Assembly: GCA_021498095.1 (NCBI GenBank)
Contig: JAIZWK010000001.1
Location: forward strand, 1,650,001-1,682,000
Length of the DNA stretch: 32,000 bases
Source: Candidatus Harpocratesius repetitus
GTDB taxonomy: Archaea > Asgardarchaeota > Lokiarchaeia > Sigyniarchaeales > Promethearchaeaceae
Reading direction: 5' to 3'
A model generated the notes under the pieces. The model was not told where the DNA came from, did no database searches, and worked only from the letters and a program-made list of their open reading frames with translations. Below, in pieces: positions 13,894 to 21,964 of this stretch (position 1 is its first letter; each line of letters starts with the position of its first letter). Position numbers and translations under genes: made by a program.

Positions 13894-14682
13894 TTAAAGA
13901 TTTGGATCTTCTAAAAGCTTAGATAATTCATCCATATTTGGTAAATCATGGATAATTTGCTGTTCAATATGATTTATCATTCTAAGTCTTTTTGACCAAA
14001 TTATAAATTGTCCTAATTCAAAACCCAGATAAATCAAGCATAATAAGGCACTTAATCTCAATAAGGTTTTATAAATTAAAAATATCCGAAGAAATTGGTG
14101 GGTTGTTGGAAGATGAATGTAATTTCGATAGATAATAAAGAAATAGATAAGGAGAAATATCGTCATACCTATTAAGATTCGAATAAACTGAATTTGATTA
14201 ATAATATGAAAATGTGTTCGTGTTAATGAGAATTCGCTTGTTTTTTTTGATAATTGATTCCATTTGAAGATAACTATAAATTGAATTACAGCTAAAATGC
14301 TGATAAGAAATAGAATGATAAAAATTCCTACAAATCTTAGAAGTTGAATACGTTCAAGTAAATAATTCATTCTTTTAGCTAATCTGTATATTATATATTC
14401 TATTAAAAGAGTTAAAATTGTAAAAATGGCTCCAATAATTTGTATTATTTGGTTTTTGCGAGTTATACCACTATATTGATTTCGTAATCTTTGATAATCT
14501 TGACTATTTGATGAAGATGGAATATATGTCTTTATTAATGTATTACCTGTTTGTTTTCTGGATTTTTCTAAATTAGAAAATCTATCTGAATATTGTTCCA
14601 GATCATTATTTTGTGTTTTACCTACATGAAGATTGGCTTTTGATTTATCTTCATTGTGATCTGGGTTTTCTGGGTTATACAT
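13894..14682 (-). CDS. Hypothetical membrane protein with about four TM helices
   Basis: Four long hydrophobic segments after a polar N-terminus. Gaps of 24-29 bp to both neighbours suggest an operon with the wHTH and M42 genes. Confidence 0.78.
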   Translation of the reverse strand: MYNPENPDHNEDKSKANLHVGKTQNNDLEQYSDRFSNLEKSRKQTGNTLIKTYIPSSSNSQDYQRLRNQYSGITRKNQIIQIIGAIFTILTLLIEYIIYRLAKRMNYLLERIQLLRFVGIFIILFLISILAVIQFIVIFKWNQLSKKTSEFSLTRTHFHIINQIQFIRILIGMTIFLLIYFFIIYRNYIHLPTTHQFLRIFLIYKTLLRLSALLCLIYLGFELGQFIIWSKRLRMINHIEQQIIHDLPNMDELSKLLEDPNL

Positions 14683-15907: not shown

Positions 15908-17551
15908 ATGGAGATTATGATTAATATGAAAAAAAATACAACTATTATTACCGGCCTTTTATTGATGGTTGTTATGCTTTCCGGCACTACAATTGCATGG
16001 GCAACTGGAACTTATACAGTGTCTAATGTAATTGGGCATAAATTTACTGAAGAAAGTTGGGCCATCCGCTATGATGTCTTGAGTAAGAAATTAGTAGAAG
16101 ATCTCACACCTGGAAATTATTCTGGTGATCTTGATTCATCTATTCCAGATCAAGCACCTTATCGAGATGCTATTTTCTATATAGCATATATGAATTTAGG
16201 GCAAGTGCAAACTGTTTACATGGCTTTCGATAGTTATTCGAATGATAATCGAAACATGACCTATTATGGTGTTTCACCTTATCAAATTATTCAGCAACAT
16301 TACCGTACTGCAGCAGGAAAACATGTGATTGTACAAAATGCATTTACAGGTCTGGTAGCATATAAAGAAAATGGAACTTTAAATGGTGTTCCTGATCGCA
16401 ACGATAGTCTATACTTTGGAGATAGTATGAATAACCAATTGTATAAATATTATCTCAACCGTCTATTAGTTTTTACATTAGGATATTATCCATTCGATAT
16501 GGATAAAACTCCAAGTGCCACTCCAAAAGTATTAACAAAATCTGAGACTTCTGACTCTTTTGAATATCGTTTTGGAATGGATTACAGCGATCTTTTTATC
16601 GTTTGGTATCCTGTTGAGATTCCAGATGATGTCAATGAGATTTCTAAGGGAGATTCATTATTAGGGAAAGTAGTTGCTTTTTCAGAATTAGCATATTTAA
16701 ATTTTACTTATACCCTTTCTGGAGCTTTAGTTGAAGATAAACCTGTAAATGTAACATTGACAACAGAATATGATATTGGACCAATTAACGATTTGTGGAT
16801 TGTTAATGATCCTCAAGATAAAACAGAAGCATTAGGTGGAAATTATTATTACTTATTTACTCTTGGAAAAGCAATTTCTCATTATAACTCAAGTGATAGT
16901 ATTCTTGCTAGATTATCTGGTTCAGAGAATATTCCTGGTTTCAGCTTGGCAGTTTCAAACTATGCTCGAATCATCAATATTGAAGCTACTGTTGAAGACG
17001 CTTATGATACAGAAGTTACCTCCGATAATGGAACAGTAATTGATGGAGATCAAGCAAATGAAAATGTCACCTCTTTAGATTTACGAACTGGTAATAAACC
17101 TGCATACAAGATTGATTTTGCAAGTAAACCAGACTATACACTAAATGGAGAAACTACATATGATGCCCCTGTTAAGTTGTTTCCATTTTCCCGAATCCGG
17201 AATCCAATATTCAATAAATTAGATGCTTATGCTTTTGTTTATTTAAATGCAATGACTCGAAGTATGATCCAAGCACGTATTGAATTGGCAAAAGAAAAAT
17301 TCTCATTGGAAGATAAGCAGCTAACTATTGATGTTACTCGAAGAAATGTCTTCTATACAATTTGTTTTCCAGAATGGGGAGGACAATCAATTTATCAAGA
17401 TCCTACTTTTACGGCTTATGCTGATCCCGGAGATTTAAGTTCAGCGGCAGGAATTTTAAGTCGTATTGATGGATTTGGTTTAGGTATATTTGCTCTTGCA
17501 GGATTAGGTGCTATGGCTCTGATTTTGAAGAAGACTAAATATAATAAATAA
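15908..17551 (+). CDS. Secreted or cell-surface protein with signal peptide and C-terminal membrane anchor (likely start is the ATG at 15926)
   Basis: MKKNTTIITGLLLMVVMLSGTTIAWA signal-like N-terminus; Tyr/Asp/Thr-rich body with several N-x-S/T sequons; C-terminal IDGFGLGIFALAGLGAMALILKKTK. Confidence 0.8.
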   Translation: MEIMINMKKNTTIITGLLLMVVMLSGTTIAWATGTYTVSNVIGHKFTEESWAIRYDVLSKKLVEDLTPGNYSGDLDSSIPDQAPYRDAIFYIAYMNLGQVQTVYMAFDSYSNDNRNMTYYGVSPYQIIQQHYRTAAGKHVIVQNAFTGLVAYKENGTLNGVPDRNDSLYFGDSMNNQLYKYYLNRLLVFTLGYYPFDMDKTPSATPKVLTKSETSDSFEYRFGMDYSDLFIVWYPVEIPDDVNEISKGDSLLGKVVAFSELAYLNFTYTLSGALVEDKPVNVTLTTEYDIGPINDLWIVNDPQDKTEALGGNYYYLFTLGKAISHYNSSDSILARLSGSENIPGFSLAVSNYARIINIEATVEDAYDTEVTSDNGTVIDGDQANENVTSLDLRTGNKPAYKIDFASKPDYTLNGETTYDAPVKLFPFSRIRNPIFNKLDAYAFVYLNAMTRSMIQARIELAKEKFSLEDKQLTIDVTRRNVFYTICFPEWGGQSIYQDPTFTAYADPGDLSSAAGILSRIDGFGLGIFALAGLGAMALILKKTKYNK

Positions 17552-17772: not shown

Positions 17773-18699
17773 ATGGGGGATAGTATGGCAGATTCAAATC
17801 TTAAAATTGCTTTGGTTGGGTTGGAAAATGCGGGAAAAACATCCATTATTCGCACTTTGAATCGCACTTATCATATTAATGGAAAAATTGCACCAACCAA
17901 GAGTGTTGAGAGAACTACTTTTACGTTATTTTCTCAAGAAGGTAGTATTTGGGATTATGGTGGACAAATTGAGTATCGTCAAAATTATCTTCAAAACCCT
18001 GATCGTTATCTATCAGAAATTCAATTTCTCTTTTTCGTAATTGATGTGCAAGATTCATCGCGATTCACTAAAGCTATTGATTATTTCGAACAAATCTATC
18101 ATGTTGTCAATAAAGAAAATCCAAAAGTTATTGTGGCTATTTTATTTCATAAAGCAGACCCTGATTTATATCAAAATAGCCAAATTCCCCAAGATATTGA
18201 AGAATTATCCCTTAAATTTCAACATATAGTTGAAAATAATGAAATAAGTTTTTACCATACTTCAATTTTTGATCCAATTTCTCTTCTTAATTCAATGTCA
18301 TTACCAATCTTGGGATCCCAACCTGTCTATAATATTATTTCTATGATTTTAGCAGAATTTGCCATGAATCATTCTATTGAATATATCTCAGTATTAGTAA
18401 ATGAATTACTTGAATTAGGTTCGTTTCGTTTAAAAACACCAAAAGAAAGTTTTATCCAAGCATCATTGGATTTTTATCATCAAATTTCTAACAAAAATTT
18501 AAAAATTAAACCTGGAGAATATGAACTAAAAGGATACAAATTTGTTATCATAAATCGAAATGTCTTAGATTATAATTATTGTTTGAATTATGCCCATCCC
18601 ACTACTGAAGATGCTAAACAACCATCAAAAGAGGAGCTTCGACAACTTTTTGGAATAATCAATGAAAAAATCGAAGAATATAATCCAACCTTAATTTAA
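17773..18699 (+). CDS. Small GTPase, Rag/Gtr1-like, with C-terminal extension (start may be the ATG at 17785)
   Basis: G1 GLENAGKT, G2 APT, G3 WDYGGQ, G4 HKAD, G5 TSIFD, plus about 130 C-terminal residues. Confidence 0.87.
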   Translation: MGDSMADSNLKIALVGLENAGKTSIIRTLNRTYHINGKIAPTKSVERTTFTLFSQEGSIWDYGGQIEYRQNYLQNPDRYLSEIQFLFFVIDVQDSSRFTKAIDYFEQIYHVVNKENPKVIVAILFHKADPDLYQNSQIPQDIEELSLKFQHIVENNEISFYHTSIFDPISLLNSMSLPILGSQPVYNIISMILAEFAMNHSIEYISVLVNELLELGSFRLKTPKESFIQASLDFYHQISNKNLKIKPGEYELKGYKFVIINRNVLDYNYCLNYAHPTTEDAKQPSKEELRQLFGIINEKIEEYNPTLI

Positions 18700-18825
18700 A
18701 CTTTTTTTTTTACTCAATTGTTCTATAATTAAATCCTTTAAATAAGAATTCCATTATAAATAAGAAAAACTAAAGCAAAACTTTTTTTTAATGCTTCTTT
18801 TTCTTTTTTGTATTTTATCAATCAT

Positions 18826-18915
18826 GGCCTCTAACGGTCAGGGTGGTCTCTGACGCTGGACTTCAAATCCAGATTACCTTCGTAGGGTGGGGAGTTCGAT
18901 TCTCCTTAGAGGCCG
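18826..18915 (+). tRNA. selC: tRNA-Sec (anticodon UCA), 9/4 archaeal/eukaryotic fold
   Basis: 9-bp acceptor GGCCTCTAA/TTAGAGGCC, G discriminator at 18915, 7-bp D stem GTCAGGG/CTCTGAC with TGGT loop, anticodon stem CTGGA/TCCAG with loop CT-TCA-AA (TCA at 18863-18865), long variable arm at 18873-18890, 4-bp T stem GGAG/CTCC with TTCGATT loop. Confidence 0.95.
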
Positions 18916-19058
18916 TTTATTTTGAAAATATATATTATGTAATTAAATCTACAGTATAACTCACTATTTTTATTCATTTGCTTAATGATATCAGTGTAAA
19001 TTGTATTATATATCTAATTTCATTTCATTTTAAAATGATTAAAACTGATTTATAATTA

Positions 19059-20024
19059 ATGAAAGAAAAATTAGATACGGGGCAAAAAATCTCCGTCCGA
19101 TATGAACTATTAAGAAAACAAGACATAACGCAAATTATACTATTTTTAGAACGACATCTTCGATTTTATACAATTTCTCATAGTATTTTAGAACAATGTA
19201 TTTTTAAAGATTCAGGTTATGAACCTTCATTAGTTATTGGAATGTTTCTTAATGATACAAGCGAACTTATAGGAATCATTGCAGGAGTTCTTCGTAAAAG
19301 AGGTCTAAAAAAATACTGTGCTTTAAAAATGTTAATTATTCATTCCGATTTTCGTCTGAAGGGTTTAGGAACAGAATTGTTAAAAAAATTCCAACAAAAC
19401 TTAAAAATTCTTATCTCTAAATCATGTTTTGTGAGGTTCGATGCATCTCCACCAAATTATATTAATCCTGGTCTTGATTTTCGTTATTCTGATTTGATCT
19501 TTTTCCTAAAACACCACGGATTTAAGAAAAAAGGTATACGAAATAACATGATTTGTGATGTACCAAAAGAATATATCATTCCCAAAAAAAAGATAAATGA
19601 TATTCAAATCAAGCGATTATCGGAATCAAATATTATCTATTTAGAGGCTTTTATTCGTAGATATTTCCGATTTAGTCTATGGGATGAAGAAGTTCGATTA
19701 AGTTATAACTTGACTCCAATTACGACATATATTGCAATAGATTCATCCAACCATATTGTTGGGTGGGCTTCCTATAATATATCTTTTCCTGGTTGCTTTG
19801 GCCCAATGGGTGTAAAAAAAGATCTTCGTGGATTAGGAATTGGAGGTGAATTATTACGATGGTGTCTTTATTCACTCTCCCAAGAAGGAATTGAAACTAT
19901 GGTAATCCGCTGGGTTTCTGAAAAAACAGCATATTTCTATTCAAAAACGATTGGTGCACATATATCCCAAATATATTACAATATGGTAGGAAAAATTAAA
20001 CCAAATAAAATTATCAAAAAATAA
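19059..20024 (+). CDS. Tandem GNAT-family N-acetyltransferase
   Basis: Two acetyl-CoA motif A copies: DFRLKGLGTELL and FGPMGV..DLRGLGIGGELL. Confidence 0.85.
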   Translation: MKEKLDTGQKISVRYELLRKQDITQIILFLERHLRFYTISHSILEQCIFKDSGYEPSLVIGMFLNDTSELIGIIAGVLRKRGLKKYCALKMLIIHSDFRLKGLGTELLKKFQQNLKILISKSCFVRFDASPPNYINPGLDFRYSDLIFFLKHHGFKKKGIRNNMICDVPKEYIIPKKKINDIQIKRLSESNIIYLEAFIRRYFRFSLWDEEVRLSYNLTPITTYIAIDSSNHIVGWASYNISFPGCFGPMGVKKDLRGLGIGGELLRWCLYSLSQEGIETMVIRWVSEKTAYFYSKTIGAHISQIYYNMVGKIKPNKIIKK

Positions 20025-20050: not shown

Positions 20051-21964
20051 TTAACGCGGTGCATAAAAGTATTCATTATTTGCGCGTTGGCGCTTATCAA
20101 TACTACTATCTTTCTTATTTATGCGCGCTCTTCCTGTGTCCTCATCCCTTCGAAAAGTAATATCTAATATTTTTAAGAATTCATTCATACCTTCGCGCTT
20201 ATTCAAAGGGCCAATTGTTTTACCATGAACTCCTGGTTTACCCGTGAATAAAAATAATCGATCAGAAAGTGCATCAACAATAGCCAAATCATGTTCAATA
20301 ACGATTGTTGTTGCGCTCATACGTTTTGTCATTGCTCGAATTACTGAAGAAATATGTAAACGTTCTTCGATATCTAAATAAGCTGATGGTTCATCCAAAA
20401 TATATAATTCAGCACGTTTAGCTAATGCTGTTGATATGAATACCCTTTGCAGCTGCCCGCCAGAAAGGTCCTTTACGGGAGTATTTAGTAAAACATCAAC
20501 ACCTAATGGAGAATATAAGAGTTGCTTCATTGAATCGGAAAAATCATAGTTTTTTGAATATTCCATAATAAAATCCTTAACAGAGCCGTCATAATTACGG
20601 GTGATATATTGGGGTTTATAGGACACATAGCGATTTACAGATTTAAATTCGCTGTGAGGATCAGGTTTAATTTGTCCTGCCATTATTTTTGCAAACGTTG
20701 ATTTTCCTGTCCCATTTTCACCGACAATGCCAAGAATTTCACCTTCATAAATGATTCCAGGATCAACATCAAGTCGAAATGTATCAAAAGTCTTAGAAAT
20801 TCGACCGTACGATGCAAAAATCCGTGCATTATCCCAAGATCGATTGCCTACACTGCGACGAAACGTAATTTGTGATTTTCTGAATTGAATGTTTTCAGTT
20901 TTAAGAAATCCAGTTAAATAAGCATTAATACCCGCTTTTGTGGATTGAACTTTTGTAATAACTCCAAATTGATGTGGTTTTCCATAAAATAAGTGAATAA
21001 CATCAGAAAGATAATCTAATATTGCTAAATCATGCTCAACAACCAATACTGGATATTGTTTACTTGAATTAAAACCAGCAGCTCGTTTTCGAAGTAATTC
21101 TGCAAGTTTAATGCGTTTTTTTATATCTAAAAAAGTACATGGTTCATCGATCAAATAACATCCTGCTTCTTGAATTAAGACGGAAGAAATTGCGAATCTT
21201 TGAAGTTCACCCCCTGAACATTGTGCTAATTTTCGATTAGCAATTGCGTCAATATCTAAATGCTCCCAAATTTGATTGAAAAATTCAATATCAATATTTT
21301 TTTGACTTTTAAGTATTTCTCCGACAGTTTTATTTTGATATTTCTCAAAAAGAACACGCAATACTTGGCGCTTATATGCAATTTTCCTGGAATTTTCAAA
21401 AGTTTCTTTAAAATGGGTACGCATTTCAGATTCACGAATGTGTTCCAAGAGTATTTTCCAATATCTATTTTCTGATATTTTTTCTGAAAGATTTATACTA
21501 CCAAAATTCGGTTTAAGATCTCCGCTTAATATATTTAATACTGTTGATTTTCCAATTCCATTAGGACCACATAACCCAGTCACCCGACCTGGTAGAAGCG
21601 TTGGTAAACCGTAAAGCCTAAATCCTCTGTTTACTGTTGTAATTTGCGATGAATCTCTTCCTATTTTTGCAGGAATATATGAATATTCATGAGTTAAGCT
21701 CTCTGGTTCTGGTTCGTCGAGTAAGAATATTGAAAATATTGCATTTCGTGGACAAACATTTAAACAAACACCACATTGAATGCAAAATTCTGAAATAATA
21801 ATCATTTTATCCGCTGATTTTTTAAATCGAATCGGAACCTCTGCTTTTTTTATGTGGTTTTTTTTACGAGCATTAGATAAGTTAATTGGACATTGTTTTA
21901 CACAAGGGCGCCCGCAACTTTGAGGTGAACATAAATCATAATCAATTAAAAAAACCTTTTTCAT
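20051..21964 (-). CDS. rli: Ribosome recycling factor ABCE1 / RNase L inhibitor (RLI)
   Basis: Two 4Fe-4S motifs (CSPQSCGRPCVKQCP, CIQCGVCLNVCP), two NBDs (GPNGIGKST, GENGTGKST; SGGELQR, SGGQLQR; DEP; EHD), FRLYGLP, hinge FRRD..TGR.RINK..S. Confidence 0.95.
   Translation of the reverse strand: MKKVFLIDYDLCSPQSCGRPCVKQCPINLSNARKKNHIKKAEVPIRFKKSADKMIIISEFCIQCGVCLNVCPRNAIFSIFLLDEPEPESLTHEYSYIPAKIGRDSSQITTVNRGFRLYGLPTLLPGRVTGLCGPNGIGKSTVLNILSGDLKPNFGSINLSEKISENRYWKILLEHIRESEMRTHFKETFENSRKIAYKRQVLRVLFEKYQNKTVGEILKSQKNIDIEFFNQIWEHLDIDAIANRKLAQCSGGELQRFAISSVLIQEAGCYLIDEPCTFLDIKKRIKLAELLRKRAAGFNSSKQYPVLVVEHDLAILDYLSDVIHLFYGKPHQFGVITKVQSTKAGINAYLTGFLKTENIQFRKSQITFRRSVGNRSWDNARIFASYGRISKTFDTFRLDVDPGIIYEGEILGIVGENGTGKSTFAKIMAGQIKPDPHSEFKSVNRYVSYKPQYITRNYDGSVKDFIMEYSKNYDFSDSMKQLLYSPLGVDVLLNTPVKDLSGGQLQRVFISTALAKRAELYILDEPSAYLDIEERLHISSVIRAMTKRMSATTIVIEHDLAIVDALSDRLFLFTGKPGVHGKTIGPLNKREGMNEFLKILDITFRRDEDTGRARINKKDSSIDKRQRANNEYFYAPR

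Follow-up and report, generated by a model that had tools for sequence, protein, structure and literature searches.

The stretch of DNA analysed here, 32,000 nucleotides long and hereafter called the window, corresponds to positions 1,650,001-1,682,000 of a genome assembled as a single contig of 4,361,485 bp with 31% G+C, for which marker genes put completeness at 93.6% and contamination at 4.5%. A selenocysteine tRNA (tRNA-Sec) gene lies in the 359-nt gap that separates a GTPase gene from a GNAT acetyltransferase gene; its parts and neighbours are given in Table 1. ARAGORN called a tRNA-SeC with exactly these boundaries as the sole tRNA in the window, and the Rfam model RF01852 (tRNA-Sec) matched it end to end with 59.8 bits (E 6.4e-10), the gathering score of this model being 47 bits. 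No other match above the cut-off was found in the 4,361,485-bp contig. An earlier, sequence-only reading of this DNA had proposed an archaeal-type tRNA-Sec with a 9/4 fold and had named a covariance-model search as one way to check it, a check that the gene passes. The same reading had warned that generic tRNA callers can miss or mislabel such genes; this did not hold here, since ARAGORN labelled the gene correctly.

Table 1. Features of the tRNA-Sec locus (positions in the window)
Feature	Position	Strand	Basis
tRNA-Sec gene, 90 nt, intron-free, without encoded CCA	18826..18915	+	ARAGORN; Rfam RF01852
Acceptor stem, 5' strand, 9 bp; partner 18906-18914	18826..18834	+	sequence, MFE fold, 7/9 pairs covary
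Acceptor stem, 3' strand	18906..18914	+	sequence, MFE fold, covariation
D arm, 7-bp stem and 4-nt loop UGGU (archaeal hallmark)	18837..18854	+	sequence, MFE fold, covariation
Anticodon arm, 5 Watson-Crick pairs, flanked by G18855/A18873 mismatch	18855..18873	+	sequence, Rfam
Anticodon UCA, reads UGA	18863..18865	+	sequence, ARAGORN
Long variable arm, 17 nt, 5-6 bp stem, 5-nt loop	18874..18890	+	Rfam, covariation
T arm, 4-bp stem GGAG/CUCC and 7-nt loop UUCGAUU	18891..18905	+	sequence, Rfam
Discriminator G73	18915..18915	+	sequence
Oligo-T tract TTTATTTT, likely archaeal transcription stop	18916..18923	+	sequence
Putative BRE/TATA-like string (AAAGCAAAAC + TTTTTTTTAA), 35-54 nt upstream of mature 5' end	18772..18791	+	sequence
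Gtr1/RagA-type, Arf-like small GTPase (eukaryotic signature protein family), immediately upstream	17773-18699	+	
GNAT acetyltransferase gene	19059-20024		
ABCE1 gene	20051-21964	-	

Counting from 18826 as position 1, the acceptor stem pairs positions 1-9 with 81-89 and is followed by a CG linker, the D stem pairs 12-18 with 23-29, the anticodon stem pairs 31-35 with 43-47 around the 7-nt loop CUUCAAA (18861-18867), and the variable arm occupies positions 49-65. The minimum free energy (MFE) fold contains the acceptor, D and anticodon stems with a z-score of -4.07, and none of 200 shuffled sequences folded as well. An MFE alternative with a 7-bp T-arm helix and a 3-nt loop was rejected, as it would destroy the invariant UUCGAUU T loop. 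All the features that the sequence-only reading had listed can be read in the sequence: the UCA anticodon, here in a 7-nt loop, the 9-bp acceptor plus 4-bp T stem (9/4), the 7-bp D stem with its 4-nt loop, the long variable arm and the G discriminator (G73). Together with the Rfam score, these are the marks of an archaeal-type tRNA-Sec; the one that the gene does not show is a set of six standard anticodon-stem pairs, which is usual, though not listed as defining in the reviews consulted.

The fold was examined in tRNA-Sec genes gathered from 150 other genomes of the same class. A match to RF01852 above the cut-off was present in 76 of the 151 class genomes, the present one included, a number which is a lower bound since intron-bearing and unassembled tRNA genes escape the count. 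In an alignment of 31 distinct intron-free tRNA-Sec copies of this class, the 9/4 cloverleaf gave standard pairs in 97.4% of cells and 27 of its 32 pairs had changed on both sides, values reached by none of 500 shuffles; sliding the partners as a control lowered the pairing to 36-54%. Compensated changes were seen at six of the seven D-stem pairs, and all six pairs of the variable arm covary across the relatives. Hardly any variation is seen in the D, anticodon and T loops, with UGGU in the D loop of 29 copies and TTCGATT in the T loop of 28, and the discriminator is G in all 31. The ninth acceptor pair (columns 9-81) is AU in 17 copies, GC in nine, UA in four and CG in one, and is never unpaired. 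The bacterial 8/5 fold was rejected in favour of 9/4 because it requires 65-81 as the fifth pair of the T stem, which 8 of the 31 copies cannot form, whereas pair 9-81 is unbroken throughout. This covariation, in conjunction with the RF01852 score, bears out the proposal of the sequence-only reading and indicates that the predicted 9/4 cloverleaf is real and of archaeal type.

Only one pair is flagged as non-standard in the RF01852 match; it sits at the upper end of the anticodon stem, where G30 (18855) stands opposite A48 (18873). That these two bases form no Watson-Crick sixth pair had already been noted from the sequence, and the Rfam match and the alignment agree. Columns 30-48 hold a standard pair in 28 of the 31 copies (GU 13, AU 9, CG 3, GC 2, UG 1); G-A occurs in the window copy and in L052, a species of the same genus, only, and C-U is found in a third genus. 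The other same-genus species, L053, carries G-U, and the change would therefore be a U-to-A substitution within the genus. G-A has thus replaced, within this genus, the sixth pair that is usual elsewhere. The tRNA probably accommodates the two bases as a stacked, structurally neutral non-Watson-Crick pair, much as ordinary tRNAs do with G26-A44. It is also conceivable that the tRNA-Sec is functional with a remodelled junction between anticodon stem and variable arm, in which G30 pairs with U49, A48 is bulged and a 6-bp stem forms in a shifted register. Column 30 could pair with column 49 in all three non-standard sequences (L017 G-U, L052 G-U, L058 C-G), and L058 has a non-standard G-A at the competing pair 49-65. 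If true, such a junction could alter the seating of the tRNA in aSelB or the ribosome. However, for the window copy as for L052, nearest-neighbour energies place the G30-U49 register 2.5 kcal/mol above the structure in which neither G30 nor A48 is paired. The pairing probability of G30 with U49 never exceeds 0.02. Moreover, the shifted register is possible in three sequences only, from two lineages, and in 28 of 31 copies column 49 is already taken up by its covarying partner, column 65. We consider it improbable that the junction is remodelled, and the presence of G-A in two species of the genus is a doubtful sign of remodelling, for instance by a 30-49 pair with a bulged A48.

The oligo-T tract TTTATTTT lies directly 3' of the discriminator G18915, for which reason CCA is not encoded, in keeping with the sequence-only reading. 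T-runs also follow many other tRNA genes in the present genome, and a poly-T 3' motif has been noted for archaeal tRNA-Sec (PMC5330540). The T-run after G73 fits an archaeal terminator and likely serves as one. On the 5' side, the string at 18772-18791 may be a BRE/TATA promoter; purine-rich-then-T-rich strings loosely recur at a similar distance in the relatives L052, L053 and L054. The idea that the absent CCA is a peculiarity of the tRNA-Sec gene was rejected, since CCA is absent from the majority of tRNA genes in this genome, for which this is the norm. Among the 48 complete class tRNA-Sec copies (L022-L071, ARAGORN), CCA is encoded right after G73 (...GCCG-CCA) in 45, those without it being the window copy, L052 and L058; according to a 2022 review, archaeal tRNA-Sec genes do not encode CCA (PMC9499178).

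ABCE1 is 78-80% identical to that of two uncultured 'Promethearchaeota'/archaeon MAGs of the same genus, and the tRNA-Sec gene sits beside ABCE1 in both of these as well. It is 73% identical to that of Ca. Lokiarchaeum ossiferum, in which the tRNA-Sec gene is not at the ABCE1 locus. These identities, like the neighbouring Gtr1/RagA-type GTPase, fit a Lokiarchaeial (Asgard) host. Two further ORFs of the window, one of 547 aa (15908-17551, + strand) and one of 262 aa (13894-14682, - strand), have no Pfam match at E<=0.001.

As the sequence-only reading had remarked, no sel genes accompany the tRNA in the 32-kb window; the distances to SepSecS, PSTK, SelB and SelD range from about 0.3 to 2.1 Mb. 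All four, which that reading had proposed to look for, are on the same contig, PSTK as a candidate recognised by its kinase domain only, and they thus co-occur with tRNA-Sec in this genome. Neither of the outcomes that the sequence-only reading would have taken as a refutation, a weak match to Sec models or a genome lacking these genes, is therefore seen. SepSecS, at 1.366 Mb, scored 443 bits (cut-off 224.85). The SelB-family factor (aSelB/EFSec) at 0.673 Mb scored 247.7 bits (cut-off 242.25); its best match among solved structures is the archaeal SelB 4ac9 (294 bits, residues 5-464 of 491), with human eEFSec next. SelD, at 3.803 Mb, scored 187.7 bits (cut-off 125) and contains a single in-frame TGA, in LHG-U-SCK, a site which we take to be the position of the catalytic Cys17 in E. 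coli SelD.

The PSTK candidate is a protein of 371 aa encoded at about 2.847 Mb (G000:C1:2846372-2847484, equal to L002:994-2109, minus strand). Its best NCBIfam matches are two PSTK models, archaeal and eukaryotic, at a score below the curated cut-off (98 vs 290.5 bits), and a PDB search, even with E<=10 allowed, gave M. jannaschii PSTK (MjPSTK) and nothing else, with long identical runs in the kinase core. Only residues 6-177, the N-terminal kinase half, align to MjPSTK; the C-terminal, tRNA-binding half is divergent, Asn/Lys-rich and poorly conserved. A homologue is present as a single copy in 138 of the 151 class genomes, compared with at least 76 of 151 for tRNA-Sec, a profile which does not separate a PSTK from a KTI12-like role, the tRNA count being a lower bound. 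Because this co-occurrence does not discriminate, the assignment is based on the alignment to MjPSTK. The length of 371 aa may be set beside the mostly 260-300 codons of the homologues in other genera and the 305-363 codons in several same-family and f3 genomes. ARAGORN also reported an intron-containing 'tRNA-Pyl' (CUA) at G000:C1:751326-751433 (-), probably falsely or by mis-parsing a tRNA with an intron; no PylS match above the cut-off was found in the genome (best 23.9 bits).

The sequence-only reading had further supposed that UGA is recoded and that selenoproteins elsewhere in the genome may be annotated as truncated. In agreement with this, in-frame TGA codons stand at conserved Cys/Sec sites of at least four genes, with six such codons in SelD, HdrA, VhuD and a VhuU-like protein, and under the standard code these four genes are cut short. 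Read with TGA as U, HdrA is 660 aa long with two U. The VhuD/FrhD-like protein has 157 aa and also two U, at CWK-U-GYG and GG-U-HIHEC; the hdrA stop overlaps the vhuD start (G000:C1:3155876-3158333, equal to L088:377-2834, minus strand). The VhuU-like ORF, of 49 codons, lies behind a gene for a 445-aa hydrogenase large subunit and has one TGA, in DC-U-LSCAAH, which is the C-terminal nickel-site motif.

The suggestion to look for 3' SECIS elements behind such ORFs also led to candidates, as an 8-bp hairpin is found 30-45 nt past the stop of both selD and hdrA-vhuD. Both hairpins are flanked by tandem G-A cores (ACGA...GA and AUGA...GA) and share the apical loop GUAAACUUUG. By these sequence features, they are predicted to be the eukaryote-like SECIS elements of Lokiarchaeia (PMC4989117, PMC11227280). 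In the hdrA-vhuD pair the only such hairpin observed follows vhuD, and the four Sec codons of the two cistrons may therefore share a single SECIS element. In a genome-wide scan with a home-made SECIS pattern, the selD and vhuD elements were among 82 mostly random matches, which makes this pattern too unspecific; it had no match within the window. About 150 nt past the selD stop, a unit of about 20 nt, AATATTGGAAAAAGTTAGAA, recurs in at least four head-to-tail copies (L004:1100-1180, minus strand).

Taken together, we hold with high confidence that the locus is a functional selenocysteine tRNA gene, and the only one, of a Lokiarchaeial (Asgard) archaeon. The gene is set apart from the sel genes, none of which is found within 32 kb, and has a mismatch where its relatives hold a pair, which might suggest a relic or an opal suppressor no longer engaged in selenocysteine insertion. 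Nevertheless, all its stems are intact, G73 and the T, D and anticodon loops match the family consensus, and the same G-A is kept in a second species; in addition, the full machinery and the six in-frame TGAs would be useless without this sole tRNA-Sec. A relic or suppressor is thus very improbable. Even less credible, to the point of being negligible, is that an unusually folded allo-tRNA or a long-arm tRNA of the Ser or Leu type was mis-called here. The Sec model does pick up further type-II tRNAs of this genome weakly, at 33-41 bits, but these matches are below the cut-off of 47 and ARAGORN names them Ser or Gly. Only in this gene is UCA joined to an acceptor stem of 9 bp, a D stem of 7 bp with a loop of 4 nt and a T stem of 4 bp, a combination backed by covariation.

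For the functional tRNA-Sec gene that we favour, expression and charging may be inferred from the established archaeal pathway. The gene would be transcribed from its own intergenic promoter, and the transcript would be matured by RNase P and 3' trimming and receive its CCA from the CCA-adding enzyme. SerRS would charge the tRNA with serine via G73 and the long variable arm, and PSTK would phosphorylate the serine, reading the 13-bp 9/4 acceptor/T domain. SepSecS would then convert it to Sec using selenophosphate from SelD, itself a predicted selenoprotein, and archaeal SelB would bring the Sec-tRNA to UGA codons marked by a 3'-UTR SECIS in selD, hdrA-vhuD, vhuU and other genes. This Lokiarchaeial chromosome thus appears to read some UGA codons as selenocysteine, and standard gene calling would therefore truncate or split at least selD, hdrA, vhuD and vhuU.

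Mariotti 2016 described a Lokiarchaeota tRNA-Sec with UCA, G73, the 9/4 fold, a 7-bp D stem, a 4-nt D loop and a long variable arm, together with the full Sec machinery and SECIS elements (PMC4989117). The tRNA description was repeated by Santesmasses 2017 (PMC5330540) and in the 2022 review (PMC9499178), and Huang 2024 reported Sec use in 85.9% of Lokiarchaeia/Helarchaeales (PMC11227280). The present gene, also a single copy, agrees with this tRNA-Sec (PMC4989117, PMC5330540) in the anticodon, the discriminator, the 9/4 partition, the D stem and loop and the variable arm; its company is likewise that of Lokiarchaeota, with pstk, SecS, EFsec and a Sec-containing SPS/SelD, the selenoproteins HdrA, VhuD/FrhD and VhuU/FrhA, and predicted eukaryote-like SECIS elements. 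The finding is thus the correct identification of a kind of gene known in Lokiarchaeia since 2016. Its differences from the published Loki copy are minor: that copy has a 31-nt T-loop intron and lies about 6 kb from EFsec, whereas ours has no intron, lies about 1 Mb from EFsec and has G-A in place of a standard sixth anticodon-stem pair.

The gene also resembles the tRNA-Sec of Methanococcales (M. maripaludis, M. jannaschii; PMC5330540, PMC9499178) in its 9/4 fold, 7-bp D stem, 4-nt loop, G73 and unencoded CCA, as well as in the PSTK/SepSecS/aSelB pathway, methanococcal proteins being the best structural-sequence matches of the present PSTK and SelB. In contrast to Methanococcales, the host is a non-methanogenic Asgard archaeon and its predicted SECIS elements are of the eukaryote-like kink-turn type and not of the methanogen type (PMC4989117). 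With eukaryotic tRNA-[Ser]Sec the gene shares the 9/4 acceptor/T domain, the 4-nt D loop, the long variable arm, G73 and a CCA that would be added post-transcriptionally, but the eukaryotic tRNA has a 6-bp D stem and a conserved U6:U67 (PMC9499178), while the present copy has a 7-bp D stem and C-G at position 6. The 13-bp acceptor/T domain, UCA, G73 and the long variable arm are common to bacterial tRNA-Sec as well, the 8/5 partition of which is unsupported here. The present gene, which has no intron and comes from a single-contig genome, is a further tRNA-Sec copy in a lineage that has figured in arguments for the eukaryotic Sec system being archaeal in origin, and leaves this picture unchanged.

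The papers cited here mention, for Lokiarchaeota tRNA-Sec, an intron in the T arm only. Among the Lokiarchaeial tRNA-Sec genes collected here, L060:201-312, L062:201-313(-) and L063 have a 24-25-nt intron in the anticodon loop, and L061:11-129 has an intron of about 30 nt in the T loop.
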